A stretch of 64,000 nucleotides of DNA, taken from the NCBI GenBank assembly GCA_017550525.1, contig JAFZOU010000011.1, forward strand, positions 42,719 through 106,718, given 5' to 3'. Shown piece after piece: positions 9,588 through 61,935 of the stretch (the first letter of the stretch is position 1; the number at the start of each line of letters is the position of its first letter). The position numbers and the translations under genes were made by a program. The notes under the pieces are model-generated. The model saw only the letters and a program-made list of their open reading frames with translations, was not told the origin of the DNA and searched no databases. The stretch comes from Bacteroidales bacterium (GTDB taxonomy: Bacteria; Bacteroidota; Bacteroidia; Bacteroidales; UBA932).

Positions 9588-9595
9588 TGGAGCCA

Positions 9596-11251
9596 CTACC
9601 TTCCGCCACCGCCGAAGCCGCCGCCGGAGAAGCCGCCACCGCCGCCAAAGGAGGCGTGACCGCCGGTGCCGTTGATGTTGCCGGCCTTGGCTATGGCATT
9701 ACCGAATGAGCGGGTGCTCATATTGTTGGTCCAGAGAACCATGTAGGTGAAGCGGTCGGAATCCATGCCGGTGCTGCGGGCAACTTCCTCATAGATTGAC
9801 GGATACAGTTTCTTGAACTGCTTGGCAACTTTCTCCGCAATTCCAAAGAGCTGGGCAAACACCAGATAATCCTTCCAGAGGCCAACCTCGTTGGAGGCTC
9901 TTTCGCCGCTTAATGTGAAGTCCTTCAGGAAGTTACGGAACTCTATGAGATGACATGTCTGCTGCTGGCCTTCCGTGGTGCAGGTGCCTTCAGAGAGGAA
10001 GTAGCCCTTGTCACGGAACCAGGTTTTGCCGCGTGCGATGGCGCGTTCCGGCCAGGCCGTCATCTTCTTGTAGTTCTTGGTGGACCACTTCTCGAACTCG
10101 TTCTTCTCCAGGATCCTGTTGTCTCCGGCGGCGCTGAGGGCCCACTGGTAGAGGTCTTCCTCTACGTCGTCCATACTGGCGGTATCGGCCTCAAAGAGAA
10201 GATTCACGCGTTTATCCGACTTTGGATCCGGCTGCACCTTCAGTTTTCCGTCCATGATCCAGCGGAGGAAAAACGCTCCTATGATATTCTGAGCCGGGGT
10301 ATTATTACCAAAGCGGGCGCCTTTTGCAAGGGTATATTCTGCCGCAAAGAGGTTCCCGTCCAGGGGTATATCCCTGTACCAGCCGTCAATCTTGGTGCGT
10401 CCGAAGATGGACTTTTTCCACTTGTATCCAAGGGCCGATGCAATGGCAACGTATAATATAAGGAATATTCCGCCGATGAAGATAAGGGCAAAACCTATGA
10501 GGAACCACTTCTCTGCGGGATCGTCCTCTCCGTAAGAGCTGTCTTCCAGGGCCTTGTCGATGAGATCCTGTACGGGACCGCCTTTGATTACCTCAGGCTC
10601 AAAGATACCCTTTTCAAACTTCACGGCGGTTATGAGCTTTGAATTGTAGTCCATTGACTCCGAGGTTTCCGCCACAACCTTTCCGCCCTTGACGTTGATG
10701 TCTCCGTAGAAGCCGAAAGCCCATACGCGGGTGTTGTCGTAGGTCCACTGAGGGCAGTCAAAGGAAGGGCTGATAGTAACTTTCACGTGCTCCGGGGCAT
10801 CAGGCATGCCGGGATTCACGAACATGAAGTTGAAGGCATCGGCATCATCGTAAGCCTGTACAAGGCCGGTTAGGACAAAGGTGACCTCCCAGACATGAGG
10901 GCCGGTTTCTCCAAGGCCCCAGCAAAGTTCCACGCCGTTACGCTTACGCACGATGCCGCACTTCCCGGTTTTCCAACTGCGGGAACGGTCCACGTCCCAT
11001 TTGTCGCCAAGGCTTTGCATAGGAACGCCGTTGTCCTTGACGCTGAGGGAGCCGATGGTCATGGGGCCAAGGTTTTCCACAGGGATATACCACTCCGTGT
11101 TGTCTGAGGATACGCGCATGTCCCAGCGCTGGGTAACTACCGCGCTGCCGTCCTTGTTCACGGCAACGTTTATGTCAAGGTCACGGACCTCATGGGCAAA
11201 CGCCGCAGCGCAGAGCGCCGCGGCTGCAACAAGAGCAAAAAGCCGTTTCAT
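9596..11251 (-). CDS. DUF2207-family membrane protein with a Gly-rich C-terminal tail
   Basis: 551 aa with a signal peptide, a central TM segment and the C-terminus GGGGFSGGGFGGGGR. It lies immediately downstream of a LemA gene, which is the usual LemA-DUF2207 pairing. Confidence 0.7.
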   Translation of the reverse strand: MKRLFALVAAAALCAAAFAHEVRDLDINVAVNKDGSAVVTQRWDMRVSSDNTEWYIPVENLGPMTIGSLSVKDNGVPMQSLGDKWDVDRSRSWKTGKCGIVRKRNGVELCWGLGETGPHVWEVTFVLTGLVQAYDDADAFNFMFVNPGMPDAPEHVKVTISPSFDCPQWTYDNTRVWAFGFYGDINVKGGKVVAETSESMDYNSKLITAVKFEKGIFEPEVIKGGPVQDLIDKALEDSSYGEDDPAEKWFLIGFALIFIGGIFLILYVAIASALGYKWKKSIFGRTKIDGWYRDIPLDGNLFAAEYTLAKGARFGNNTPAQNIIGAFFLRWIMDGKLKVQPDPKSDKRVNLLFEADTASMDDVEEDLYQWALSAAGDNRILEKNEFEKWSTKNYKKMTAWPERAIARGKTWFRDKGYFLSEGTCTTEGQQQTCHLIEFRNFLKDFTLSGERASNEVGLWKDYLVFAQLFGIAEKVAKQFKKLYPSIYEEVARSTGMDSDRFTYMVLWTNNMSTRSFGNAIAKAGNINGTGGHASFGGGGGFSGGGFGGGGR

Positions 11252-11797
11252 CTAGATTTCCGGGTAATCTTTCTTGGAAACGTCGTCGGCAAGGTAATCA
11301 CGCTTTGCAAAGCCAAGGATTCCGGCCACCAGGGAGGTGGGGAATACGCGCACCTGCTGGTTGAAGCGGGTTACGGTGTCGTTGAAGGTCATGCGGGACA
11401 GGCGGACGTTTTCCTCATAGTCCTTGATGTCCTTCATTGTCTGCTGGTAGTTGGCGCTGGCCTTGAGATCCGGGTAAGCCTCTGCCACGGCGATGAGTTT
11501 GGCGCCGATTGCGGCAAGGGCTTCTTCGTTGGCGTTAATATCGGCCGCAGTGGGATTGGGAGAAGAGACAATCTTACGCTCCTTCACAATTTTCTCAAGG
11601 GTATCGGCCTCATAGGAAGCATATTCCCTGGTGAGTTTGATGAGGGCCTTCAGGGCATCGAAACGACTGATCTGCTGGACGTTGATCTGCTTCAAGGCAT
11701 TGTTGCAGAGTTCGTCGCTTTTCACAAGGCGGTTCTGAACGCCGATGATCCAGATTACAAGGACTGCCAGGACGGCAAGGATAATAGCTAAAGTCAT
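11252..11797 (-). CDS. lemA: LemA family protein
   Basis: It has an N-terminal TM helix (MTLAIILAVLAVLVIWIIGVQNRLV) followed by LemA-type helical repeats (YPDLKASANYQQ, FNDTVTRFNQ). I chose the start at ATG 11797. The track extension to 12022 has no support. Confidence 0.85.
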   Translation of the reverse strand: MTLAIILAVLAVLVIWIIGVQNRLVKSDELCNNALKQINVQQISRFDALKALIKLTREYASYEADTLEKIVKERKIVSSPNPTAADINANEEALAAIGAKLIAVAEAYPDLKASANYQQTMKDIKDYEENVRLSRMTFNDTVTRFNQQVRVFPTSLVAGILGFAKRDYLADDVSKKDYPEI

Positions 11798-11872
11798 AGT
11801 ACAGTTTATTTTATTATGCGAATATACAAAATTTGCATAAATTTGCGAATAGAATAAACGTTTATTACACAT

Positions 11873-12610
11873 ATGAAAACAAACCAGGAATTCAAGAATG
11901 CCGCCCTTGACGCACTTCGCGGCAATTGGGGAAAAGCCGTTGTGGCTACACTCGTCTATGTGCTTATCCTTTCTTTCATAACCGGCCCTACGGTTTATAG
12001 CACCACCCGGGTCCAGAAGCAACTGACCGATCTTGCCGCCACTTCTCCCACCGGATATCAGGCAGCAGCACTTATAACCTCCCCTGAATTCATCGCCCTC
12101 CAGAAAACGGCCACCCGCACCAGCGGTATCTCCACCCTGTTGCAGTTCCTGCTGGTCCTGCCCCTCTCCCTTGGCTTCCTGAATGCATTCCGGAAACTTC
12201 TTGTAGCCAGAGACAGCCAGATTCTATCCAACACTTTCCGTATCGGCTTCAGTAATTACTGGCACAAGGTATGGGGTATGCTCCTTATGACAATCATGGT
12301 ATTCCTGTGGTCCCTCCTTCTCATTATTCCCGGAATCATCAAGTGGTTCTCATATGCCATGACCCCCTTCATTCTGGAGGAGAACCCTGAACTTGGAGCC
12401 TCGGATGCCATTCACCGCAGCCGCATGATGATGCGCGGCCACAAGTTTGACCTCTTCTATCTGTACCTGAGCTTCATCGGCTGGTTCATCCTGTGCATCT
12501 TCACCGCCGGTATCGGTTTCCTGTGGCTTGGCCCTTACGTGGACACCGCCATCGCCGCCTTCTATGAGGAGGTCAAGGCCGATTACGCCCTCAACGGCGG
12601 CCTGGACTAA
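11873..12610 (+). CDS. DUF975-family integral membrane protein
   Basis: 245 aa. The N-terminus NQEFKNAALDALRGNWGKAV and the MMMRGHKFDLFYLYLSFIGW region are typical of DUF975. Confidence 0.65.
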   Translation: MKTNQEFKNAALDALRGNWGKAVVATLVYVLILSFITGPTVYSTTRVQKQLTDLAATSPTGYQAAALITSPEFIALQKTATRTSGISTLLQFLLVLPLSLGFLNAFRKLLVARDSQILSNTFRIGFSNYWHKVWGMLLMTIMVFLWSLLLIIPGIIKWFSYAMTPFILEENPELGASDAIHRSRMMMRGHKFDLFYLYLSFIGWFILCIFTAGIGFLWLGPYVDTAIAAFYEEVKADYALNGGLD

Positions 12611-12615
12611 TCCCT

Positions 12616-12753
12616 TTGCCGTGTTGACGGCTAAAACGCGTATAAGGCCGATTCCGGAGCCAACACGGCAAGGAAATCGGCCTTTTTCCGTGAAATTGCT
12701 GCCGTGTTGACGCAAAATCGCCGCTACAGGCAATCTGAGTGTCAACACGGCAA
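12616..12753 (+). repeat. REP/MITE-like structured intergenic repeat, copy A
   Basis: It has two inverted-repeat modules: TTGCCGTGTTG 12616-12626 with CAACACGGCAA 12661-12671, and GCCGTGTTGAC 12701-12711 with GTCAACACGGC 12741-12751. It also contains a terminator-like stem AAGGCCGATTCC 12644-12655 / GGAAATCGGCCTT 12672-12684 followed by TTT. By eye it is roughly 90 percent identical to copies B and C. Confidence 0.9.
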
Positions 12754-12756
12754 AAC

Positions 12757-13671
12757 CTACAGTACCAGGCATCGGCTTATCTGAGCATCGGACACGTGGA
12801 AATCGTATTTCAACTGGCGGGCGATGCGCATTTTCTGGGAATCAGTGAGCTGATACACGGAAGTGGCTCCGAACGGACGGCACAGTTCCCTGTCAATGAG
12901 CATACAGACATCCAGATCCTGGAGGCGTGTCCTGTCGAAGTTCCTGCCGTACTCATTCTTAAGCATCTGGGCCACGGTGTTTTCATCGGCCTGTTCTATG
13001 TCGGAAATAGTCAGCGGTGCTCCGGTATTGTCTTTCAGTTGTTCCTTCAGCCAGGAGTCGTCGGACAGGCGGTTCATCTGATAGAGGTAGTTCCTTGGGG
13101 TGCTGAAAAACTGTTCCGCCCGCCTGAGTTCCATAAAACTGCGGCGGACAAACACACCGCGCTCGTTCATCTGAAATGAATCCGGGAATTCGGCGTGCCG
13201 TGGGAGATTGCTGGAAATATCACTTCTTGACATAGGCACGGCCTCATCCCCGCATAGTCCTATATCCTGCGCGAACATATCCCTTACACTGCAGAAAAGA
13301 TAGCCGAATGCTGTAGGGGCGGCTCCGTGGTGAAGACCGTTCCTAAGTATATAGGACAGCATTGTCAGTATATGGTACAGTCCCAGTACTATAGCCACAA
13401 AGGTATACTTCTGCCCAAATCTCCCCCTGCGGCCGTACTTGGTGTTGAAGTACTTGGTGTAGGACATCCTTTCCCGTCGGGCAAACTCTGACGGATTATC
13501 CGTGAACACTCCCTGATGCACGTGAGTGGACATCTCGGCATCGGCAAGTATTTCCGTTCCGGTGGAGAATGACTGAAGTGCCATCAGGTTTACAAATACA
13601 TCGTGGTCTTCCCGGTCCCTGAACATAACCTCGTCGTGGGAAGTAAAACAGATATGGTAGGTCTCCTTCAT
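12757..13671 (-). CDS. IS200-like HUH/Y1 transposase homologue (RAYT-like, COG1943-type) with a C-terminal HTH-like tail
   Basis: 304 aa. The N-terminal block YHICFTSHDEVMF.DREDHDVF, a HUH-like motif STHVHQG and a Tyr-rich block SYTKYFNTKYGRRGRFGQ (candidate catalytic Tyr) fit the Y1 transposase fold. The C-terminus QLTDSQKMRIARQLKYDFHVSDAQISRCL looks like an HTH. The stop lies 3 nt from repeat copy A. Confidence 0.65.
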   Translation of the reverse strand: MKETYHICFTSHDEVMFRDREDHDVFVNLMALQSFSTGTEILADAEMSTHVHQGVFTDNPSEFARRERMSYTKYFNTKYGRRGRFGQKYTFVAIVLGLYHILTMLSYILRNGLHHGAAPTAFGYLFCSVRDMFAQDIGLCGDEAVPMSRSDISSNLPRHAEFPDSFQMNERGVFVRRSFMELRRAEQFFSTPRNYLYQMNRLSDDSWLKEQLKDNTGAPLTISDIEQADENTVAQMLKNEYGRNFDRTRLQDLDVCMLIDRELCRPFGATSVYQLTDSQKMRIARQLKYDFHVSDAQISRCLVL

Positions 13672-13819
13672 GGCGGCAAGTTACTGCACCGAAGGCGTTC
13701 TATCAAGGGGGTGCTCATAACTTGTGTTGTTTCACGTGAAATATTTTACGTTTTTTGTGATTTTGGTGGGAAAGACCATGTTTTTTGCTAAATTTGAAGT
13801 GTTTATAAGACGTGTCCAT

Positions 13820-14428
13820 ATGAAAAAACTGCTTCTCATATCGCTTGCGGCCTGCGCATTAATGGCCTGCAACCAGCCGGCACAGAAGAATCCCGGCGCT
13901 TCTTTTGACGAAGTACTCACCACCCGCCGCAGCGTCCGCGCCTATGACGCATCAAAGACTATCTCGGAATCGGAGGTCCGCGAACTCCTTCTTGCCACTC
14001 AGGAGGCCCCGTCCTGGGCCAACCAGGAACCCAGCAAGTATTATGTAGCTGTTGGCGGAGAAAAGCACGCCGCCCTCCTTGAGATGATAGGCGGCAACAA
14101 GGACAGGGTTGCCAATGCCCCCGTACTCATTGTCTCCACATATGAAAAGGGCAAGTCCGGCTTCTTCCGCGGAACGGCCACCAATGAGATAGAGGACGGC
14201 TGGGGCGCCTATGACAACGGACTCAGCAACGCCTACCTTATTCTCAAGGCCAGGGCTATGGGCTTTGACACGCTCATAATGGGGATGCGTGACAGCGACG
14301 CCATCCGCGCCTGCCTGGATATCCCGGAGAATGAAGCCATTATGGCCGTGATAGCCCTTGGGTACCGCGCGCAGGAGCCATCCAGGCCGCAGAGAAGACC
14401 TCTTGATGACGTAGTGCGATTCTTCTGA
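13820..14428 (+). CDS. nitroreductase-family protein with a lipoprotein-type signal peptide
   Basis: Signal peptide MKKLLLISLAACALMACNQ, followed by nitroreductase motifs (TRRSVRAYD, AYLILKARAMGFDT). I chose the start at ATG 13820 rather than the track start at 13724. Confidence 0.8.
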   Translation: MKKLLLISLAACALMACNQPAQKNPGASFDEVLTTRRSVRAYDASKTISESEVRELLLATQEAPSWANQEPSKYYVAVGGEKHAALLEMIGGNKDRVANAPVLIVSTYEKGKSGFFRGTATNEIEDGWGAYDNGLSNAYLILKARAMGFDTLIMGMRDSDAIRACLDIPENEAIMAVIALGYRAQEPSRPQRRPLDDVVRFF

Positions 14429-14439
14429 CGGCGTTCGCC

Positions 14440-14577
14440 GTGCCGTGTTGACGGCTAAAACGCGTAAAAGGCCGATTCCGGAGCCAACACGGCAAGGAAA
14501 TCGGCCTTTTTCCGGAAAATCGCTGCCGTGTTGACACAAAAACGCCTCTACAAGCAATCTGAGTGTCGACACGGCAA
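14440..14577 (+). repeat. REP/MITE-like structured intergenic repeat, copy B
   Basis: It has the same architecture and orientation as copy A. It starts 12 nt after the nitroreductase stop and ends about 30 nt before the next gene's ATG. Confidence 0.9.
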
Positions 14578-14607
14578 ACTGTCCGGAAAAATACCTATCT
14601 TTACACC

Positions 14608-15567
14608 ATGTTCAAAGTTGGAATAATCGGTGCCGGGCACATCGCAGAGAAGGCGGCCCGCACGCTTCAGGCAATGGAAGATATGACCTGCATTGCCATC
14701 GGTTCACGTTCTGAGGAGAAGGCTCTGGCCTTTGCCGGGCGCTTTGACATTCCCCGGGCATACGGGTCATACGCTGCACTGCTGGAGGACCCTGATATAG
14801 ACCTTGTGTATATAGCCGTACCGCACTCATGCCACTTTGGAGTGACACGTGACGCCATCCTTGCCGGGAAGCCCTGCCTTGTGGAGAAGTCCTTTATGCT
14901 CAATGCCACAGAAGCGGCAGAAATCATTGCCCTGGCCCGTGAGAAAGGCGTTTTTGTGGGAGAAGCCATATGGCCGCGGTATATGCCGGTAAGGGAGATC
15001 GGCCGTAAACTTTTGGAGTCCGGCATCATTGGAGAACCCCGTATGGTCCAGGCCACCCTGGCTTACAATGTGTCCGACAAAGAGCGCATCATTAGTCCGG
15101 AACTTGGCGGAGGCGCCCTTCTGGATCTTGGAGTTTATCTTCTGAACTTTGTGAGAATGTACTTTGATGCACCGGTCTCACAGATTAACACCACCTGCGT
15201 CAAGGCCCCTAGCGGGGTAGATGCATCCGAGCAGGTTACAATGGTTCTTTCCGATGGCACCCTGGCTTCTCTGGACTGCTCTGCCTGGTGCCAGGGAGGC
15301 AACGAGGCCGTCATAGCCGGCACCACCGGCTACCTTGTCTTTGACGATCTTATCAATCCCAAGACCGTTAACGTTTGCCGTAAACGCCATATAGTGGAGA
15401 AGACCGTAGCCGTGCCTGATCAGATTACCGGCTTCGAGTATCAGTTCCGTGCCTGCCGGGATGCAATTGCAGCCGGATCCCTGGAGCCATCGGCTATGCC
15501 CCACGCAGAAATCCTATACATTATGCATCTTATGGACCGCCTCCGCGCGGAATGGGGTACGGCATAG
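14608..15567 (+). CDS. Gfo/Idh/MocA-family NAD(P)-dependent oxidoreductase
   Basis: Rossmann N-terminus MFKVGIIGAGHIAEK and the EKSF motif (PCLVEKSFMLN) are present. I chose ATG 14608, because the track's GTG at 14563 lies inside repeat copy B. Confidence 0.85.
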   Translation: MFKVGIIGAGHIAEKAARTLQAMEDMTCIAIGSRSEEKALAFAGRFDIPRAYGSYAALLEDPDIDLVYIAVPHSCHFGVTRDAILAGKPCLVEKSFMLNATEAAEIIALAREKGVFVGEAIWPRYMPVREIGRKLLESGIIGEPRMVQATLAYNVSDKERIISPELGGGALLDLGVYLLNFVRMYFDAPVSQINTTCVKAPSGVDASEQVTMVLSDGTLASLDCSAWCQGGNEAVIAGTTGYLVFDDLINPKTVNVCRKRHIVEKTVAVPDQITGFEYQFRACRDAIAAGSLEPSAMPHAEILYIMHLMDRLRAEWGTA

Positions 15568-15574
15568 TGCCTTC

Positions 15575-15662
15575 GTGGACCTGGCCCAGCCGCTTTGTGG
15601 ACTTGGTATGGCCCATGTGTGGACCTGGTCCAACCCCTGCGTGGACCTGGTCCAGGGCATGC
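15575..15662. repeat. 22-bp x4 tandem repeat carrying the palindrome TGGACC-T-GGTCCA
   Basis: Units start at 15575, 15597, 15619 and 15641 (GTGGACCTGGCCCA, GTGGACTTGGTATG, GTGGACCTGGTCCA, GTGGACCTGGTCCA). The period is exactly 22 bp. Confidence 0.85.
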
Positions 15663-15694
15663 GGCAGTGTGCAACGACGTGCGACAGCGGCCAC

Positions 15695-15832
15695 CGGCCG
15701 TGTTGACGGCTATAACGCGTATAAGGCCGATTCCAGTGCCAACACGGCAAGGAAATGGGCCTTTTTCCGCCAAAACGCTGCCGTGTTGACGCAAAAACGC
15801 CGCCACAGGCAATCTGAGTGTCAACACGGCAA
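15695..15832 (+). repeat. REP/MITE-like structured intergenic repeat, copy C
   Basis: It has the same architecture and orientation as copies A and B. It lies in the convergent spacer between the oxidoreductase and uvrA. Confidence 0.9.
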
Positions 15833-15981
15833 GCACGGAGGCTTATCGGCCGGTGCCCTTCGGACGGCATAGCCGCCCGTGGCTTCGTGAACGGGAGGGG
15901 CCCAGAGGCCGTGCTATGCACGGACGCATGGGAGGGATAGGGCCGAAGGTCCGTACCGGTCCGAAGTGCACTGGCCGAAAC

Positions 15982-18732
15982 CTACAGAACGTCCTTGAGG
16001 TACGGGCCGGTGACGGAGGCGGGGTCTGAGGCAAGCTGTTCCGGGGTGCCCTGGGCAACTATCCAGCCACCGCGACGGCCGCCTTCCGGTCCCATGTCAA
16101 AGAGGTAGTCGACACTCTTGAGCACATCCAGATTGTGCTCTATTATGATGATGGTATTTCCTGCTTCCACAAGCCTCTGGAGTACTCCAAGAAGCACTTT
16201 TATATCCTCAAAGTGAAGGCCGGTAGTGGGCTCGTCAAGAATATACAGGGTATTCCCCGTGGAAGGGCGTGAGAGCTCTGCGGCCAGTTTCATGCGCTGG
16301 CTCTCACCGCCGGAAAGGGTGATGGCGCTCTGGCCAAGGCGCACATACCCAAGGCCCACATCCATCATGGCCTTCAGTTTTGCGGCAATCTTGGGAACGG
16401 GCTTGAAGAACTCGTAGGCCTCGGAAATGGACATTTCCAGGACGTCGTTGATGTTCTTTCCCTTATACCTCACGGCCAGGGTATCCTCATTGTAGCGCCT
16501 TCCGCCGCAGGTTTCGCAAGGAACGTGCACGGACGGCAGGAAGTTCATCTCAATGACCTTGATGCCGGCGCCCTTGCATTCCTCGCATCGGCCTCCGGGG
16601 ACGTTGAAGGAGAATCGGCCGGCCTTATATCCGCGAACTTTGGCGTCCGGCGTTTCCTCAAAGAGGGTACGTATGTCATTGAACACGCCCGTGAAAGTTG
16701 CCGGATTTGAGCGGGGCGTACGGCCGATAGGGCTCTGGTCTATCTCTATGAGCTTGTCTATATTCTCTATGCCTTCGATGGACGCGTACGGAAGAGGACG
16801 CTCCTTGGAGCGGTAGAACTTCTGCTTCAGGATGGGCATGAGGGTCTCGTTCACAAGGGAACTCTTACCGGAACCGGAAAGGCCTGCAACACCAATGAGG
16901 CAACCAAGCGGGAAACTCACATCCACGCTCTTGAGGTTATTGCCCGTTGCGCCGCGGAGAGTAAGATATTTGCCGTTTCCAGGCCTCCTGGCCGCCGGAA
17001 CATCAATTCTGCGCTTCCCCCGCAGATAATCAAGCGTAAGGGACTTGCCCTTTTTCAGAAGTTCCTTCAACGGCCCGTTCAGGCATATCCTGCCGCCGTT
17101 TTCTCCGGCACCAGGGCCCACATCCACAAGCCAGTCGGCGCTCATCATGGTCTCTGCGTCGTGTTCCACAACCATCACGGAATTGCCCTCGTCCCGCAGT
17201 GCCTTCAGTGACGCTATGAGCTTACGGTTATCCTTCTGATGAAGGCCGATAGAAGGCTCGTCAAGTATATACAGCACATTCACCAGCTTGGAGCCTATCT
17301 GGGTTGCCAGGCGGATGCGCTGGCTCTCACCTCCGGAAAGGGACCCTGTGGGGCGGTCCAGCGACAGATAGTCAAGGCCCACGTCCAGCATGAACCGAAC
17401 GCGCTCACGGAGCTCCTTGAGGATGTCCCTGGACACATTCAGTTCCTTCTGGTTAAAGCCTTCCGGAATCTTTTCCAGCCATGCGGAAAGTTCAGAAATC
17501 TCCATTGCAGAGACCTCTGAAATGGTTTTTCCGTCCACCCTGAAGCACATTGCCTCCTTGTTGAGACGGGTGCCGCCGCACACGGGGCACACCACGGTGT
17601 CCTCAATATTCTCAATGACTCCGCCCCAGGTTTCCATCTCCGTGAGATTCCCCTCTCCTACGCGGAAAAGGTCCTCGGAGCCATACACAAGAAGGCTCAC
17701 TACCTCGTCAGGCAGGGTGCCGATGGGATCGTACAGGCTGAACCCGTATTTACGGGCAATGGCGCGTATTATATCGAACTTTCGGTTTTCACGGACCTTT
17801 CCCAGGGGCACTATGCCGCCATCGGCCACGCTCCTGGAGCGGTCCGGAATGATTGTGTCTATGTTCACGTCCACAATGGTCCCCAGGCCCTTGCAGTGAG
17901 GGCAGTACCCCTGCGGGGAGTTGAAGGAGAAACTATGGGGCTGCGGCTCCTGGAGGGAAAGCCCGCTCTGAGGGTCTACAAGGTGCTTGGAATAGTGGGA
18001 AATCTCTCCGCTTTCAACGTCAAGGATTGCTACGGAGCCCTTTCCAAGGCCGATAGCCTTCCCCACCGAGTCCCTCACCCGGCGGTCGTCCCCCGCCTCA
18101 GGTATAAGGCGGTCCACTACCAGTTCAATGAAGTGCGGCTTATAGCGGTCAAGGGCCATCTCCGGCACGACGTCCTGGATTTCACCGTCTATACGGACCT
18201 CCATATAACCGCGCTTTCGGAGCTGTTCAAACAGTTCACGGTAATGTCCTTTTCGGCCCCTGACAAGCGGTGCCAGAAGATAGCATTTCCGGCCCGCGAA
18301 CTTGTTCATTATGAGGTCTACAATCTGGGAATCGTTGTAGCGGACCATCTCAAGGCCGGTTTCCGGGGAAATGGCCCTGGAGCCTTTGGCATATAGTAGC
18401 CTAAGGAAGTCATAAATCTCAGTGATTGTGCCAACCGTGGAGCGGGGATTGTTCCCGGTGGTTTTCTGTTCTATGGCAATGATGGGACTGAGGCCTGTAA
18501 TTTCCTCAACCTCCGGCTTTTCCAGTATGCCCATAAAATGTTTGGCATACGTGGAGAGGGTGTCCATATAGCGGCGCTGGCCCTCTGCGTAAAGAGTATC
18601 GAAGGCCAGAGAGCTCTTGCCGCTGCCACTGAGCCCGGTAACCACCACAAACTGCCCGCGGGGGATGTCTACATCTATCCCCTGCAGGTTGTTTGCCCTT
18701 GCTCCGCGAATCTCAATGAAGTCTTTTGCCAT
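15982..18732 (-). CDS. uvrA: excinuclease ABC subunit A
   Basis: Two ABC ATPase modules (GLSGSGKSSLAFDT; GLSGSGKSSLVNET; LSGGESQRIRLA; LSGGESQRMKLA) and Zn-finger Cys pairs are present. I prefer ATG 18732 (MAKDFIEIRGAR) over the TTG at 18741. Confidence 0.95.
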   Translation of the reverse strand: MAKDFIEIRGARANNLQGIDVDIPRGQFVVVTGLSGSGKSSLAFDTLYAEGQRRYMDTLSTYAKHFMGILEKPEVEEITGLSPIIAIEQKTTGNNPRSTVGTITEIYDFLRLLYAKGSRAISPETGLEMVRYNDSQIVDLIMNKFAGRKCYLLAPLVRGRKGHYRELFEQLRKRGYMEVRIDGEIQDVVPEMALDRYKPHFIELVVDRLIPEAGDDRRVRDSVGKAIGLGKGSVAILDVESGEISHYSKHLVDPQSGLSLQEPQPHSFSFNSPQGYCPHCKGLGTIVDVNIDTIIPDRSRSVADGGIVPLGKVRENRKFDIIRAIARKYGFSLYDPIGTLPDEVVSLLVYGSEDLFRVGEGNLTEMETWGGVIENIEDTVVCPVCGGTRLNKEAMCFRVDGKTISEVSAMEISELSAWLEKIPEGFNQKELNVSRDILKELRERVRFMLDVGLDYLSLDRPTGSLSGGESQRIRLATQIGSKLVNVLYILDEPSIGLHQKDNRKLIASLKALRDEGNSVMVVEHDAETMMSADWLVDVGPGAGENGGRICLNGPLKELLKKGKSLTLDYLRGKRRIDVPAARRPGNGKYLTLRGATGNNLKSVDVSFPLGCLIGVAGLSGSGKSSLVNETLMPILKQKFYRSKERPLPYASIEGIENIDKLIEIDQSPIGRTPRSNPATFTGVFNDIRTLFEETPDAKVRGYKAGRFSFNVPGGRCEECKGAGIKVIEMNFLPSVHVPCETCGGRRYNEDTLAVRYKGKNINDVLEMSISEAYEFFKPVPKIAAKLKAMMDVGLGYVRLGQSAITLSGGESQRMKLAAELSRPSTGNTLYILDEPTTGLHFEDIKVLLGVLQRLVEAGNTIIIIEHNLDVLKSVDYLFDMGPEGGRRGGWIVAQGTPEQLASDPASVTGPYLKDVL

Positions 18733-18768
18733 AGACAGCAAAGATACTCAAAAAAACTGGTATCTCCG

Positions 18769-19218
18769 CTATCTTGCCCTTGTGCCCTTGAACCGCGTGG
18801 GGTATTCCCCAAAATTGAGGCTGAAGGAGAGGCTGCTTCCCTTCAAAGTGCCGCTAAGTGACGTGACATTGTACTTTGGATACTCTCCTCCAAGGGCCAG
18901 TGGGACGACATTGTTGCAGGAAAAGGATACTCCTTCACTCTCTTTTTCCACCGCCACGGCAGGAATAGTCACATCTATACGCACCGGCATCTTGGGAACG
19001 AACTTAATCTTATAGATTATGATATCGGCCCGCCTCCCGTCTTCTGAAGGCAGGAAGGCAACCTTGATGTCGGGATTATCCACAACCCCTCCCTCATAAT
19101 CCACGGAAACGGTCCCTATGTAGAGATCCTGGGGAGGGATTTCATGCGGCTGGGGCGTCTTGTGACAGGAAACAAGGGCCAGGACGGCTATGAAAAGTAC
19201 TGAGAGTCTGTTTTTCAT
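18769..19218 (-). CDS. small lipoprotein, possibly calycin/lipocalin-like; function unknown
   Basis: 149 aa with lipobox LALVSC and a beta-rich sequence. It is translationally coupled to the upstream TonB-dependent receptor by a 4-nt overlap. Confidence 0.5.
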   Translation of the reverse strand: MKNRLSVLFIAVLALVSCHKTPQPHEIPPQDLYIGTVSVDYEGGVVDNPDIKVAFLPSEDGRRADIIIYKIKFVPKMPVRIDVTIPAVAVEKESEGVSFSCNNVVPLALGGEYPKYNVTSLSGTLKGSSLSFSLNFGEYPTRFKGTRAR

Positions 19219-21362
19219 AATATTGATACTTGTACGCCAAGGGTGAAGACCGCAGGCTTTGAAACCTGGAAGAATTCATTTCCCATCGATTTGAAATAGA
19301 ATGTGCGGAAGCGGGTGCCGGTAAGGTTCTCGCCGCGAAGATATACTTGGAAACGCCCAAAACGGACCCTTGCATCTGCGCCCAGGGTAACGTAGAACGG
19401 CTCTTCAAGGGTATTTGCCTCATTCCAGGCAATGGGGCCGATGCCTCTGACGTGCGCCTCCACCTCAAACCTGTTTCCGGAATATCCGGCCGATACGAAG
19501 AGAGTATGAGAGGGGCTGTAGGGGATACTGTTTCCGGAGTAATCGGCCTGGCCGTCGTTGAACTCGGTGAATCTGGCGTCATTCCAGCCCCACGATGCCC
19601 TCCCCATGAAACCTGCATTCTCATAGGACGCCTGCAGCTCCACGCCGTAACTACGGCTTCGGCCTGCATTCGTCATCATCCTGCCGGTGGTCATTCCGGG
19701 AGGGAAGACGGTGATCTGCTGGTTTACGGCATTAGCGTAAAACGCAGTTGCATCGGCCCTGAAATTCTCTCCGTGATAGCCAAACCCGGCCTCGAAATTC
19801 CACAGTTCCTCCGGCTGGTACTCCGTGTTGTCCGCAACGGCAGACACCGTGGGGCGGTCAAAGTACACGCCAAGATCGGCCATAAGCCCGTTCATCATTC
19901 GGTTCTGGAGGATGTCGGAGAAAATCTGGGTGTTGAAGCCTCCCGCGCGGTAGCCTTTTGCCACGGAGGCCGATAAAAGCCACTTCCCCGAAGGCGCAAA
20001 CTGAACCGCCAGTTTGGGAAGGATCTGGAGCCCGCCGTGGAAGAGATCTCCGGTATAAGTGTCCTCGAATGGCTTTGGAGAGGCCATAAAGGGCACCATA
20101 CGGTAGTGGAGCGCCGCAAAGCAGTCATACCCCATCCAGGCACCCTCATAGTCTATTCTGAGGCCGGCCGTGAATGTCCATCGGCCTACCGGAAACACGG
20201 ATTCGTGATAGAGGGCGGCGTTCCAGGAAAGGATGGAAAAGCGGCTGTCAACGGGGAAAGATGCATCCGGAATCTCCAGATAGCCGATATCATCCGGTAT
20301 GCCGCCGTTTGCATTGTCAAGGATGAGTTTCTCTATGCCGTCACGCTTGAAAAGCACCGGAGCGTCCATTCCGCATGCCTTGAAAAAGCCAAAGAACCCC
20401 GTCACGGGCTTCCAGTGGCTGAATCTTCGCGCCGGGCGGAGGAGGGCCTCAAAAGTCTGTGCGCCGCTAAGCTGCCTCTGCTGAAGGGTGAACACAGATT
20501 GAGGGGAATAGTCCTGGTCCATCCGCATATCATCGGCAAGGATTTGGGCCGATGTCATCAGGTCAAGCACGATATTCTCTTTCCTCAGCCTTGCCTTGAA
20601 GCCTTCCAGGACGGTGATTCGCCTGTATGAGCCTTCGTCGTTGTAGTTCACGGGCTGCACCTCACCGTCCTTCCATGCACCATAGGCAAAGCCTCCCTCG
20701 GAGGAAACGCCGGCCTGGAGGAGGTTCCCAAGGGTAAGGTCATCAAAAGCCTTTTCCCAGCGCCACCTGAGCTGGCCCCCGTCATAGGGATCGCACATCT
20801 TTCCGGTGTGAGTGTTGGGAAAAAAGCCGCTGGAATGCCTGTAGGCGGCGCTGAAGGAATGATTTCCATAACCGCCGGAGACCTGCGCCAGGGCGTGATG
20901 ACGGCTGCCATATTCAAGCGCCGCACGGAGTCCCTTATGGGCCGCTGTCCTTATTGAAAGGACCCCAGCAAGGGAGTTTCTCCCGTATGCCGTTCCCTGC
21001 GGCCCATGGAGGAAGCGGATGCTTTCCACATCAAGGTAGTCAAGGTCATAGCTGTTTTTGTCAAGGACCGGGAAGTCGTCTATATAAAGGCCGATAACAG
21101 GGTTTTCCATCCTGGAACCAAGCCCTCTTACATATATGGAGGATGTGAGGGACGCCCCATAGTCCGGAAGGTGGAGTCCGGGAACGATAGCCGCAACGCC
21201 CTTAGGATTATTTATGCCATACTGGCGGAGCTCATCGGCCTTGATGCCGCTCACCATCCCCGTCACCCGCATCTCGGTCTTACCTGCCACGGCAATGGCG
21301 GGAGCAAGCGTATCTGCAGGCGATCCTGCAAGGAGCATCATAGCTATGAGGGCTGTCAGCAT
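19215..21362 (-). CDS. TonB-dependent outer-membrane receptor (non-SusC type)
   Basis: About 715 aa with an N-terminal plug-like region (VRGLGSRMENPVIGLYIDDFP) and a C-terminal beta-barrel that ends in an aromatic-rich strand. I prefer ATG 21362 over GTG 21371. Confidence 0.85.
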   Translation of the reverse strand: MLTALIAMMLLAGSPADTLAPAIAVAGKTEMRVTGMVSGIKADELRQYGINNPKGVAAIVPGLHLPDYGASLTSSIYVRGLGSRMENPVIGLYIDDFPVLDKNSYDLDYLDVESIRFLHGPQGTAYGRNSLAGVLSIRTAAHKGLRAALEYGSRHHALAQVSGGYGNHSFSAAYRHSSGFFPNTHTGKMCDPYDGGQLRWRWEKAFDDLTLGNLLQAGVSSEGGFAYGAWKDGEVQPVNYNDEGSYRRITVLEGFKARLRKENIVLDLMTSAQILADDMRMDQDYSPQSVFTLQQRQLSGAQTFEALLRPARRFSHWKPVTGFFGFFKACGMDAPVLFKRDGIEKLILDNANGGIPDDIGYLEIPDASFPVDSRFSILSWNAALYHESVFPVGRWTFTAGLRIDYEGAWMGYDCFAALHYRMVPFMASPKPFEDTYTGDLFHGGLQILPKLAVQFAPSGKWLLSASVAKGYRAGGFNTQIFSDILQNRMMNGLMADLGVYFDRPTVSAVADNTEYQPEELWNFEAGFGYHGENFRADATAFYANAVNQQITVFPPGMTTGRMMTNAGRSRSYGVELQASYENAGFMGRASWGWNDARFTEFNDGQADYSGNSIPYSPSHTLFVSAGYSGNRFEVEAHVRGIGPIAWNEANTLEEPFYVTLGADARVRFGRFQVYLRGENLTGTRFRTFYFKSMGNEFFQVSKPAVFTLGVQVSIL

Positions 21363-21456
21363 AGTGGGCACAAAGATAGCGGCTATCCGCTTTAGATTTC
21401 AGCAGATAGCCACCGTCTGTTAGGACAATTTATGCCATTAGTCCCACCTGCGGGCC

Positions 21457-23133
21457 TCAGAGAGTCTGTCCTCCGATGAATTCCCTCATGATTGAAGTGG
21501 GAGGAATGGCATCTATCTCCTGTGGCTGGAGTGCCACTATGAAGTCCAGGAACTTCAAAAGGCGGCGAGCCTCGGAGAAAGCCGGAGAAGACGGCAGGAT
21601 GCGTCTCAGGAGGGGTTCCGCATAGTAGCGGAGCATCGGGAGCTCATACAGGAGGGCGGTGTTGAACTGGGCATCGGCATTCTCCTGGAAAGGGAAGATG
21701 TTCCGGCCCTCGCCACGGCGGACTGACGGCCAGCGGAGGATGGTGTCTTCCGGGGTGATTCCGCGTACGCGATTGTCACGCACCATGCGCCTCAGAAGCC
21801 TGTTATCCGTTGTGGAGATGCAGCAGTTCTCGTCCAGTTTCAGGGACGTCAGGGCCGATGCATATATGCGGAAAATGCGGCTCTGGTCCACTGAGGGCAC
21901 CATTGCGGGATCAAGTGCATGGATGCCTTCCATCACAAGTATGTCGTTCTCCTCAAGGTGCATCATATTGCCCTCGAAGAAGGGACGTCCCTGCTTGAAA
22001 TCATAGCGGGGAATCTCAACTTCCTTGCCAGCAAGGAGGTCATTGAGGTGCCGCCCAAGGAGTTCCAGGTCCATGGCTTCAAGGGCCTCGAAGTCAAAGT
22101 TTCCGTCAGAGTCCACGGGCGTACGTTCACGCTCCACAAAGTAATTGTCCAGTTCTATCACCTTGGGATTGAGGCCCAGTACTTTGCACTGCTGGGCAAC
22201 CCTCAGCGATGAAGAAGTCTTTCCGCTGGAAGAAGGGCCTGCGATGAACACTATCTTCACATGGTCCCTCTGGGCATAAATACGGTCTGCCAACGCTCCG
22301 TAAGCCCTTTCCTGACGGGCTTCACACAGGTTTATCAGCTCCACCGCTCCGCCGCTCTGGAGGCGCCTGTTGAGGGCTCCTACGCTCACAACTCCCGTGG
22401 TCTTGCACCAATGGCCGTAATCCTTAAGGGTGGTGGTGAGTTTCATCTGCTTCTGGCGGGCGATAGTCTTTGTAATATCCTCATCGGAAGGATACATCAG
22501 GCAGAATCCATGATGGAACGGCATTAGGTCGAACACTTCCAGGTAGCTGGTGGAAGGCACCAGGGCGCCATAGAAGTTATCGGCCACCCCGTCAAGATAG
22601 TTTACCTTGCAGTAGAACTGACCCACCGTGCGTATTAGATCGGCCTTAAGTTCCTGATTCTGGGACTCGAAGAGTTCAATGGCCTCGTTTGCCGGCAGCA
22701 CCTTCATAGAGAACGGAAGGTCCTGGGCCACAAGGCGGCGCATCTCTTCGCGGAGGGCCATTATCTGCTCATCCGTTATACGCTCACCGCGAAGCTTACA
22801 GTAAAGGCCGCTGGGCAGGGAGTGGTTTATCTTGAACTTCCTGTCCGGGAAAAGGTTTCGCACAGCCCTCTGGGCCAGGAAACTCAGGGAACGTATATAC
22901 GTGCGGCGGCCGTCCGGGTGATTGAAGCCAACAAACTCTATGGAATGGGGGCTGAACACCTCATAGTCAAGGGATTTGAGCTTATGGTCACAGAGGGCGG
23001 CCAGCACCGGGTATTCCTTTCCGGTCTTGGGGTCCTTTACAGTTTTGGGGGCTATGGAGGCAAGGGGGCTCCCCACCTCCACGTTTATCTTCTCCCCGCT
23101 TGAGGCAAGCGTAATTGTAATCTGCTTCATCAT
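21457..23133 (-). CDS. uridine kinase/PRK-family nucleoside kinase fused to an N-terminal TGS-like domain
   Basis: P-loop IAGPSSSGKTSS sits in the central domain, and the architecture is typical of Bacteroidales TGS-Udk fusion proteins. The ATG at 23133 overlaps the GH97 stop (ATGA). Confidence 0.7.
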   Translation of the reverse strand: MMKQITITLASSGEKINVEVGSPLASIAPKTVKDPKTGKEYPVLAALCDHKLKSLDYEVFSPHSIEFVGFNHPDGRRTYIRSLSFLAQRAVRNLFPDRKFKINHSLPSGLYCKLRGERITDEQIMALREEMRRLVAQDLPFSMKVLPANEAIELFESQNQELKADLIRTVGQFYCKVNYLDGVADNFYGALVPSTSYLEVFDLMPFHHGFCLMYPSDEDITKTIARQKQMKLTTTLKDYGHWCKTTGVVSVGALNRRLQSGGAVELINLCEARQERAYGALADRIYAQRDHVKIVFIAGPSSSGKTSSSLRVAQQCKVLGLNPKVIELDNYFVERERTPVDSDGNFDFEALEAMDLELLGRHLNDLLAGKEVEIPRYDFKQGRPFFEGNMMHLEENDILVMEGIHALDPAMVPSVDQSRIFRIYASALTSLKLDENCCISTTDNRLLRRMVRDNRVRGITPEDTILRWPSVRRGEGRNIFPFQENADAQFNTALLYELPMLRYYAEPLLRRILPSSPAFSEARRLLKFLDFIVALQPQEIDAIPPTSIMREFIGGQTL

Positions 23134-61439: not shown

Positions 61440-61584
61440 GGCCGATTGCCGTGTTGACAGCCAAACCACCTTCTACGGCCACTTTCATTGCCGACACGGC
61501 AACAAAATCGGCCTTTTCCCCGGAAAACGCAGCCATGTTGACACTAAAAACCCAATTCTGAGCCATCTAACCGTCAACACGGCC
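61440..61584 (+). repeat. REP/MITE-like structured intergenic repeat, divergent copy D
   Basis: GGCCGATTGCCGTGTTGAC ... CCGACACGGCAACAAAATCGGCCTTTT ... GCCATGTTGAC ... GTCAACACGGC. It has the same module order and orientation as copies A to C, but more substitutions. Confidence 0.75.
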
Positions 61585-61613
61585 AGCGCTATGGATAATT
61601 CCATTTTATTTAC

Positions 61614-61635: not shown

Positions 61636-61933
61636 GCCTTGGTGGTGGAATGGTAGACACGAGGGACTTAGACACAATTGAGTGCTCTCTCTGAAAAGAG
61701 AGATGCAGAATGCCGTAAATTCAAGGAAACCATAACGGGTAACGCCGATGGCAATCTTGAGCCAAGCCTTTGAGAGAAGGAAGGTGCAGAGACTAGACAC
61801 GGCACACCTAAAGAGCATAGCTCCAAGGTGAAGGAATAGTCCAGACCACAAACAGAAATGGTGGCGAAAGCCATAGTGGTAAGAAAATCCCTTGGCCCGA
61901 AACGGCCGTGCGGGTTCGATTCCCGCCCGAGGC
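61636..61933 (+). tRNA. tRNA-Leu (anticodon UAA), split by a group I intron (exons 61636-61669 and 61883-61933)
   Basis: The joined exons give an 85-nt class II tRNA. Its parts are acceptor GCCTTGG/CCGAGGC (one G-U), D arm GTG-GAATGGTAGA-CAC, anticodon stem AGGGA/TCCCT, loop CTTAAAA, a long variable arm (GGCC..GGCC), T arm GCGGG-TTCGATT-CCCGC and discriminator A. Confidence 0.9.
61670..61882 (+). ncRNA. group I self-splicing intron (IC3-like), 213 nt, no internal ORF
   Basis: It is inserted between U34 and A35. P1 pairs ACTT with GAGT (61680-61683), giving U-G at the splice site. Also present are P2 CTCTCT-GAAA-AGAGAG, P3 TGCCG/CGGCA, the core string GGAAGGTGCAGAGACTAGAC, P7 GACTA/TAGTC, P8 CACCT..AGGTG, P9 TGGC-GAAA-GCCA and a terminal G at 61882. 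Confidence 0.85.
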
Positions 61934-61935
61934 AC

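Follow-up and report, generated by a model that had tools for sequence, protein, structure and literature searches.

A RAYT-like Y1 HUH protein and its probable cognate double-hairpin repeat in Bacteroidales

Does a gene which ends 3 nt away from a hairpin-forming repeat encode an enzyme that acts upon this repeat? The question is raised by a stretch of 64,000 nucleotides from a Bacteroidales bacterium (assembly GCA_017550525.1, contig JAFZOU010000011.1, positions 42,719 to 106,718 of the forward strand), called the window hereafter, in which an open reading frame (ORF) encoding 304 amino acids (aa) lies next to one of several copies of such a repeat. An initial annotation, made from the letters alone, had taken the product for a Y1 transposase homologue and the pair for a candidate system made of a REP-associated tyrosine transposase (RAYT) and of its repetitive extragenic palindromic (REP) sequences. 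Our analysis supports this reading, with corrections to the domain layout, to the catalytic tyrosine, to the helix-turn-helix (HTH) tail and to the flanks of the gene. We consider it likely that the protein is a domesticated, single-copy class-2 Y1 HUH endonuclease, distantly related to the RAYT and TnpA_REP proteins, and that it forms a REPtron-like unit with its cognate repeat, a locally clustered double-hairpin element of about 135 nt.

The limits of the ORF and its distance to the repeat were found as annotated: the stop codon occupies positions 12757-12759 and the outer arm of the nearest repeat copy (copy A) ends at 12753/12754. Neither TnpB nor any gene of insertion sequence (IS) type is found among the neighbors of the gene, in the ORFs of the window or in the comparison of loci, which agrees with the initial annotation; the neighbors in the window are a nitroreductase and a DUF975 protein. 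The product begins MKETYHICFTSHDEVMF and also contains SYTKYFNTKYGRRGRF (translation of the minus strand). We modelled it with AlphaFold (AF2; predicted local distance difference test, pLDDT, 85.9; predicted template modelling score, pTM, 0.86). Residues 1-113 of the model follow the order beta-alpha-beta-beta-alpha-beta-alpha, with strands at 3-10, 40-46, 50-57 and 89-95 and helices at 20-37, 60-79 and 97-113. When the PDB was searched with this model by means of Foldseek, the best match was 4er8_A, the TnpA_REP protein of E. coli with a REP hairpin bound (target TM-score 0.66); the transposases of IS200, IS608 and ISDra2 rank after it, and the top 26 matches are all Y1 transposases.

The sequence of the window protein, taken alone, has no match in Pfam or NCBIfam (E<=10), in the PDB sequences, in PADLOC or in PHROGs. 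We ruled out a defence-system or phage protein, there being no PADLOC or PHROG match. The relatives of the protein give more. Weak matches to PF01797 (E<=0.1) are found in 25 of 42 diverse members of the family, and two of ten distant relatives pass the gathering threshold of 23 bits, with 26.8 and 24.2 bits. A profile of the N-terminal 128 residues, run against a database of 5.8 billion sequences, retrieves PF01797 proteins at E-values from 1e-10 to 1e-6; these proteins (P0281-P0285) themselves match the NCBIfam model NF047646 (REP_Tyr_transpos) at 23-47 bits, for a cutoff of 80. The hhalign comparison with one of them, P0284, reaches a probability of 98% (E 1.8e-13) with the HUH motif and the Tyr motif in register. 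The expected match to a Y1_Tnp or RAYT profile is therefore missing for the window protein itself and present, though mostly weak, for its family.

The catalytic residues can be followed through the same alignments. STHVH, which the initial annotation had rightly designated as HUH-like, aligns with PEHMH of 4ER8 and with PNHFH of P0284. Further downstream, SYVLRNPLHHG of the family profile aligns with VDYIYINPVKHG of 4ER8 and the Tyr motif aligns with SSYVNLN of P0284, Y107 and N111 being paired with the Y and the N of YIYINP (4ER8) and of YVNLN (P0284). An alignment of 42 sequences, with identities as low as 25%, shows the residues H50, H52, Y107, H114, H115, Y124, D252, C256 and R300 to be invariant and N111 to be kept in at least 90% of the sequences; the HUH and Tyr residues, whose loss would have spoken against a Y1 enzyme, are thus all in place. 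The window protein reads YILRNG where the family consensus is YVLRNP, which fits the class-2 pattern Y-[IV]-x-x-N-P. According to the motif table of PMC6006769, class 2 is characterized by YxxxN(P) and IS200 by YxxxQ. The tyrosine first proposed was another one, Y71 in SYTKYFN. We rejected it: it is not invariant in the wider family, and its segment corresponds in the alignments to SYTKYFNxKY, a motif of helix C in class-2 proteins which the family has in common with subclass-2.1-like proteins. We take Y107 (codon 13351-13353), in SYILRNGLHHG, for the predicted catalytic residue because it is invariant, because it is aligned to known catalytic tyrosines and because N111 stands at +4. Hence, it is well supported by the model and the alignments that the N-terminal domain has a Y1 HUH fold with conserved catalytic residues, and it would be expected to be an active nuclease.

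The protein does not have the single-domain layout attributed to it at first. Only residues 1 to about 125 make up the Y1 fold, while residues 126-304 form an additional helical domain, which is conserved across the family. Modelled alone, this domain reaches a pLDDT of 69.7 only and finds no fold in the PDB better than E=3.8, so that no structural relative is detectable there; it has no match in Pfam, NCBIfam, PADLOC or PHROGs either. The HTH-like tail of the initial annotation is not supported by any search. An HTH or a tail resembling domain IV of DnaA was considered and dropped: neither Pfam nor NCBIfam gives a match, and DnaA (2hcb) appears only at E=7.8.

We now turn to the repeat. The hairpin-forming copies which had been seen scattered near the gene are indeed present: the window contains four of them, of about 138 nt each and all in the same orientation (Table 1). 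Each copy is made of four arms, spaced by about 41 nt, which alternate in the order + - + - and therefore form two hairpins, with stems of 12-14 bp and loops of about 30-31 nt. The core arm GCCGTGTTGAC occurs 16 times with at most one mismatch, for 0.83 occurrences expected, and none of 100 shuffles reaches 16. The element folds far better than its shuffles (z = -5.2 as DNA, -7.4 as RNA). All four copies are intergenic and three of them lie directly after the 3' end of a plus-strand gene; the site of copy C bears no copy in a close relative (locus L102). The loops contain a semi-conserved motif AAATCGSC, in either orientation, and the orientation of the loops varies among species (F-R, R-R, F-F). 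The foot of the stem is TT-GCCG in the close clade and different in distant clades. Within the element one finds the hairpin GGCCGATT...AATCGGCC followed by TTTTT.

Table 1. Position of the gene, of its protein domains and motifs, and of the repeat copies in the window.
Feature	Position	Strand	Basis or location
Y1 HUH (RAYT-like) protein gene, 304 aa	12757..13671 (stop codon included)	-	ORF list, homologues
N-terminal Y1 HUH nuclease domain (predicted), residues 1-125	13297..13671	-	AF2 model, Foldseek, hhalign
HUH motif H50-V-H52	13516..13524	-	translation; invariant in family alignments A3 and A6; aligned to known HUH motifs
Tyr motif S-Y107-ILR-N111-GLHHG, predicted catalytic Tyr and polar residue at +4	13324..13356	-	translation, conservation, alignment
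C-terminal helical domain, about 180 aa, family-specific, invariant D252, C256, R300	12760..13296	-	family conservation, separate model
Repeat copy A, four-arm double hairpin	12617..12754	+	3 nt beyond the stop codon of the gene
Repeat copy B, 93% identical to A	14441..14578	+	between nitroreductase and GFO/IDH/MocA genes
Repeat copy C, 91% identical to A	15696..15833	+	between convergent GFO/IDH/MocA and uvrA genes
Repeat copy D, diverged, about 72-78% identical	61446..61587	+	48 nt upstream of a tRNA-Leu gene

Other identities were tried for the element. A REPIN-like inverted doublet does not describe the copy of the window well, as its two halves align slightly better in direct orientation (loop identities 20/33 against 16/32). 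A known RNA family or a terminator is not supported either: Rfam gives no match at the gathering threshold and only chance-level ones at E<=1, and the elements are not picked up by a simple terminator scan. Among these weak Rfam matches is the Bacteroidetes motif DUF2693-FD RNA at 12618-12669 on the plus strand (18.7 bits, for a gathering threshold of 44.5; E=0.096), which we judged to be due to chance.

Is the proximity of gene and repeat particular to this window? We collected 80 loci from about 76 species-representative genomes, nearly all of them metagenome-assembled genomes (MAGs), possibly incomplete, of uncultured rumen, gut or faecal Bacteroidales (Candidatus Cryptobacteroides, Muribaculaceae, Bacteroidaceae); the pattern scan covered the closer relatives. 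Two homologues come from short contigs binned as 'Faecalibacillus sp.' or as an unclassified 'bacterium' (L093, L098), which most likely reflects contamination in MAG binning. Each locus was compared to itself, and a repeat was counted when at least one further copy existed in the same locus. By this count, 65 of the 80 loci have a repeat which starts no more than 150 nt beyond the stop codon; a repeat within 350 nt upstream of the gene is found in 38, and both flanks are occupied in 32. Of the 80 loci, 52 show the four-arm (+ - + -) architecture within 230 nt after the stop codon; upstream, at a distance of at most 400 nt, it is found in 28 of 78. The background is 38 of 4137 (0.9%) other windows of 255 nt in the same loci. 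The junction is tight: in 31 of these 52 loci the first arm starts at a position between -18 and +12 nt, counted from the end of the stop codon. In several loci (L032, L039, L047, L054, L095) the TGA stop is itself part of the first arm (GCCGCGTTGAcac), the coding sequence and the element overlapping by about 10 nt. The position of copy A is occupied likewise in the orthologous loci L007, L009 and L011. The first of these (83% protein identity) has one copy 3 nt after the stop codon and another upstream; the second (70%) has copies right after the stop codon and 92 nt upstream of the start; the loci L011-L016 (64%) have the two-hairpin architecture after the stop codon, with arms GCCGCCTCGACA, and two further copies with these arms in the same locus of 21 kb. 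The statement that the repeat stands on one side of the gene only is therefore true of the window and does not extend to the 32 loci with two occupied flanks. In these 32 loci the two copies are 82-100% identical; 23 pairs are direct, 4 are inverted and 5 have an ambiguous orientation.

The elements are concentrated around the gene. Within 1 kb of it there are 8.0 elements per 10 kb; the density drops to 1.0-1.65 at distances of 1-3 kb and to 0.06-0.31 between 3 and 10 kb. At a distance from the gene it is about 0.18 per 10 kb, or about one element per 57 kb, which by a rough extrapolation amounts to tens of elements per genome. A scan of metagenomes for the repeat returned six stretches only, too few for a genome-wide count. 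The co-occurrence of gene and repeat proposed by the initial annotation thus holds across about 76 genomes, for the loci around the gene.

The sequences of the arms are specific to each lineage. In the closer clade they include GCCGTGTTGAC, GCCGCGTTTAC, GCCGCGAATCC, GCCGCCTCGGC, GCCGCCTCGAC, GCCACGTTGAC and TCCGCGTTGCG; in relatives at 36-42% identity one finds ACCGTCCGAC, GCCRTACTTG, CCACAGAATG and others. The adjacency of gene and repeat has survived a complete turnover of the arm sequence. We aligned 44 stems, the real loops being replaced by GAAA, and calculated their covariation: 85% of the cells pair, and in 12 of 16 stem pairs both partners have changed in a compensatory manner. The stems reach a covariation score of 0.379; shuffles give 0.169 (none of 500 reaches 0.379) and controls where the pairing was slid at most 0.096. 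Four genomes contain two divergent paralogues of the gene, 35-65% identical, and in three of these genomes a different repeat stands beside each paralogue (L048/L095, L038/L091 and L020/L073); the elements of the fourth pair (L089/L092) could not be resolved. This lends indirect support to the idea that a repeat family would occur only together with its cognate gene. Paralogue-specific repeats have a parallel in Pseudomonas, where several RAYT/REPIN pairs are found per genome (PMC3116915).

The gene itself displays signs of domestication. As far as MAGs of limited completeness and a scan of the closer relatives can tell, it exists in a single copy in about 72 of the 76 genomes, without near-identical duplicates, so that the paralogue count agrees with what had been anticipated for a RAYT. 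Within a species its locus does not change from contig to contig (8 for the window protein, 23 for its homologue P0093), no homologue was found in plasmid or phage collections, and its GC content is like that of its surroundings, with an unremarkable composition.

From homology we expect the protein to bind, cleave and possibly mobilize its repeat. Metal binding, attack by a tyrosine and a 5'-phosphotyrosine intermediate are established for the TnpA protein of IS608 and for TnpA_REP of E. coli. In the case of the window protein, the arms of 12-14 bp would fold into hairpins on single-stranded DNA and the N-terminal domain would bind them; H50 and H52, together with N111, would hold a divalent metal, and Y107 would cut and rejoin the strand through a 5'-phosphotyrosine intermediate. 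Such cutting and rejoining could copy, move or homogenize the elements, preferentially near the gene. The C-terminal domain would probably add the recognition of the long loops and of the linker, or contact a host factor.

Several observations weigh against a REPtron-like unit. The window protein by itself stays below the Pfam and NCBIfam thresholds. No GTAG or CGTC tetranucleotide was seen in the elements examined, and their length of about 135 nt exceeds the 20-40 nt of canonical REP sequences. Away from the gene they are not numerous, perhaps tens per genome, which is far below classical REP families. The covariation fits a hairpin of single-stranded DNA, an RNA structure or a palindromic site of double-stranded DNA alike, and the arms had been chosen for their complementarity. 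Finally, the flanking copies are mostly direct, whereas the literature describes inverted flanking REPs. This orientation is rather that of the ends of IS200/IS605 elements, which lie on one strand, and it leads to another explanation: the unit [repeat - gene - repeat] would be an autonomous and selfish IS200-like insertion sequence whose ends are the hairpin elements of about 135 nt, and the solitary repeats would be its derivatives, akin to miniature inverted-repeat transposable elements (MITEs). The occupation of both flanks in 32 of 80 loci by copies which are 82-100% identical, a genomic context which differs between species at 70% identity or less, and modules around the gene which are rearranged among close strains all go in this direction. 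We nevertheless hold this explanation to be unlikely. An insertion sequence should not be restricted to one copy in about 72 of 76 genomes, the second copies being diverged paralogues with a different repeat, nor to one invariable position across the contigs of a species; the absence of homologues in the plasmid and phage collections, the absence of TnpB, the YxxxN motif of class-2 RAYT type instead of the YxxxQ of IS200 and, in the window, the presence of a copy on one flank only all speak against it.

It might also be supposed that the repeats are primarily cis-regulatory or structural (bidirectional terminators, 3' hairpins stabilizing messenger RNA, palindromes binding a protein), that they are spread and kept by recombination or gene conversion, and that the role of the adjacent copy for the protein is confined to autoregulation, if the protein acts on the repeats at all. 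The intergenic position of the four window copies, three of them directly 3' of plus-strand genes, and the hairpin followed by TTTTT would suit such a function, and breakpoints located at the copies would fit plain homologous recombination. A regulatory element does not readily account for an enrichment of about 70-fold beside one gene family in about 76 genomes despite the complete turnover of the arms, for a separate repeat beside each paralogue or for invariant nuclease residues, and neither the terminator scan nor Rfam recognizes the repeat; we regard this supposition as improbable. Still less credible to us is a mobile element which targets REP sequences and has landed beside a repeat already present in the host, adjacency then reflecting a target preference. 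The tight and sometimes overlapping junction between stop codon and arm could be read in this way, and so could the complete elements on both flanks in many loci. These flanking elements are at the same time full copies of about 135 nt and not split halves, as would be expected after an insertion into a repeat; the gene has a single copy, whose position within a species is fixed; and the repeats are densest at the gene and sparse elsewhere, while the invasion of an abundant host repeat predicts the opposite. We therefore retain the REPtron-like unit as the best explanation.

The neighborhood of the gene is not static. The synteny of the region (uvrA, nitroreductase, GFO/IDH/MocA, DUF975-LemA-DUF2207) is kept between loci at 83-97% identity and lost at 70%. 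Between the window, in the region 9590-15980, and the loci L019, L100 and L102, four strains with a DNA identity of 88-92%, three modules are found in four different orders and orientations: the GFO/IDH/MocA oxidoreductase, the nitroreductase with the Y1 gene, and DUF975-LemA-DUF2207. The breakpoints of the modules lie at element copies or within about 20 nt of them. L100 has a module made of a repeat and of the GFO gene at the site equivalent to 9590/9593 of the window, and in L102 the module of the nitroreductase and the Y1 gene is missing from the equivalent place. No clean pair of a filled and an empty site was found for a single element: the junctions at 9590/9593 and 15588-15978 differ between strains, with additional sequence and rearrangements in several steps. 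Either homologous recombination between copies or the action of the enzyme could have produced the different orders of the modules. As the copies concentrate within about 3 kb of the gene and the breakpoints coincide with copies, one may speculate that the Y1 enzyme with its C-terminal domain drives a local, cassette-like shuffling of host genes bracketed by double-hairpin elements, although we think it doubtful. If the shuffling were mediated by the enzyme, this would be a REP-based system of gene rearrangement in gut and rumen Bacteroidales.

A few other features of these loci were recorded. Upstream of uvrA, in the species of the window, lies a segment of about 2.7 kb (18724-21463) with a TonB-dependent receptor and an ORF of 149 aa, as judged by comparison with the locus L001; it is absent from this place in L019, L100 and L102. 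Two other species have restriction-modification or defence genes beside the gene: in the loci L011-L016 (7312-9644) it is near an EcoRI-type methylase and GmrSD/HNH genes, and in L017 (4914-9787) near Eco57I/MmeI-type and T5orf172 genes; both proximities are probably coincidental. Between the stop codon of the GFO gene and copy C (15575-15655) there are about four tandem copies of a motif GTGGACCTGG(Y)CC with the palindrome GGACC(N)GGTCC, and in L102 a single copy of this motif fills nearly the whole 40-nt spacer of the convergent genes. The tRNA-Leu(UAA) gene which begins 48 nt after the end of copy D (61636-61935, plus strand) was missed by ARAGORN with default settings and found with the option -i: it is split between positions 34 and 35 of the anticodon loop by a group I intron of 214 nt (Rfam RF00028, 54.6 bits, 61660-61864). 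The tRNA-Leu intron of cyanobacteria and plastids occupies this site too, and in the literature searched we found no link of a tRNA-Leu group I intron to Bacteroidetes.

What is the interest of such a unit? The RAYT/REP (or REPIN) pair is the best-studied case of a domesticated transposase living in the long term with its own non-autonomous repeats, and nearly all the characterization of these systems comes, to our knowledge, from work on Proteobacteria and Cyanobacteria. The published record for Bacteroidetes is limited to a short remark about 'atypical secondary structures' (PMC6006769), and the literature searched contains no description of REP-type repeats in Bacteroidales. The family is large. 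A collection clustered at 90% identity contains at least 395 homologues, and among the matches listed none has a Pfam assignment or an informative name, "hypothetical protein" being the most that is given; in a library clustered at 50% identity, 1670 representatives reach E<=1e-3 and 376 of them also E<=1e-10. At least 376 clusters from uncultured rumen and gut Bacteroidales, now annotated as hypothetical, would thus belong to it, and the annotation of hundreds of MAG proteins could be corrected. The pairs of genes and repeats offer a natural covariation data set on how Y1 enzymes read hairpins, and the protein is a candidate agent of local rearrangements in the genomes of a clade that matters ecologically.

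Among the known systems that come close is the REPtron of E. coli (TnpA_REP/RAYT; PDB 4ER8; Ton-Hoang 2012; Messing 2012, PMC3479197). The likeness extends to the Y1 HUH fold, to the aligned HUH and Y-x-x-x-N motifs, to a single-copy chromosomal gene and to flanking hairpin repeats which recur elsewhere in the genome. The differences concern the protein, of 304 aa against 165 aa owing to the extra C-terminal domain of about 180 aa, with STHVH as the context of the HUH motif and no conserved W-Q/E motif, as well as the element, of about 135 nt with four arms, loops of about 31 nt, no GTAG foot, tens and not hundreds of copies, and mostly direct flanks. The REPIN-RAYT systems of Pseudomonas (Bertels & Rainey 2011, PMC3116915) resemble ours by a non-autonomous element of two hairpin units, by one cognate single-copy Y1 gene per repeat family and by the possible coexistence of several gene/repeat pairs in one genome; they differ in that the units of the window element are better described as a direct tandem, that the orientation of its loops flips among species and that its units are much longer.

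The transposases of IS200, IS608 and ISDra2 share the fold, and many relatives of the window protein have, as those elements do, subterminal hairpins on either side of the gene which point in one direction. Elements of IS200 type are multi-copy, have a YxxxQ motif and a protein of about 130-150 aa, and are often accompanied by TnpB. The window family departs from the IS200/IS605 group on each of these points, being single-copy, with N in place of Q at +4, 304 aa and no adjacent TnpB, and it has no plasmid or phage homologue. Within class 2, the nearest sequence relatives outside the family are the subclass-2.1-like proteins P0281-P0285 (PNHFH ... SYTKYFNxKYxRxGxLFQG ... SxYVNLN), with which it has the SYTKYFNxKY helix motif in common. 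These proteins are of about 215-221 aa, with an insertion that separates helix A from the HUH strand, and lack the C-terminal domain of the family; subclass 2.1 is reported not to be associated with REPs (Quentin et al., PMC6006769). Subclass 2.6 of TnpA_Y1 (group 5 of the RAYTs of Bertels) belongs to Bacteroidetes, and its genes have 'atypical secondary structures' on their flanks (Quentin et al. 2018, PMC6006769); its motifs are NH[LIV]H, WQ and YIH[QN]NP and its median length is 179 aa (PMC6006769). The window family resembles it by the phylum, by a Tyr motif of class-2 type, by a low copy number and by flanking non-canonical hairpins which recur in the genome. When compared to the published motif table, which alone was used here, it differs by STHVH, by the lack of WQ (GRFGQKY instead), by YILRNG/YVLRNP and by its length of 304 aa; moreover, the window protein is not detected by PF01797. 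What is new here is therefore not a categorically new system: it is a diverged subfamily of proteins, an extra domain of 180 aa and a tandem double-hairpin repeat.

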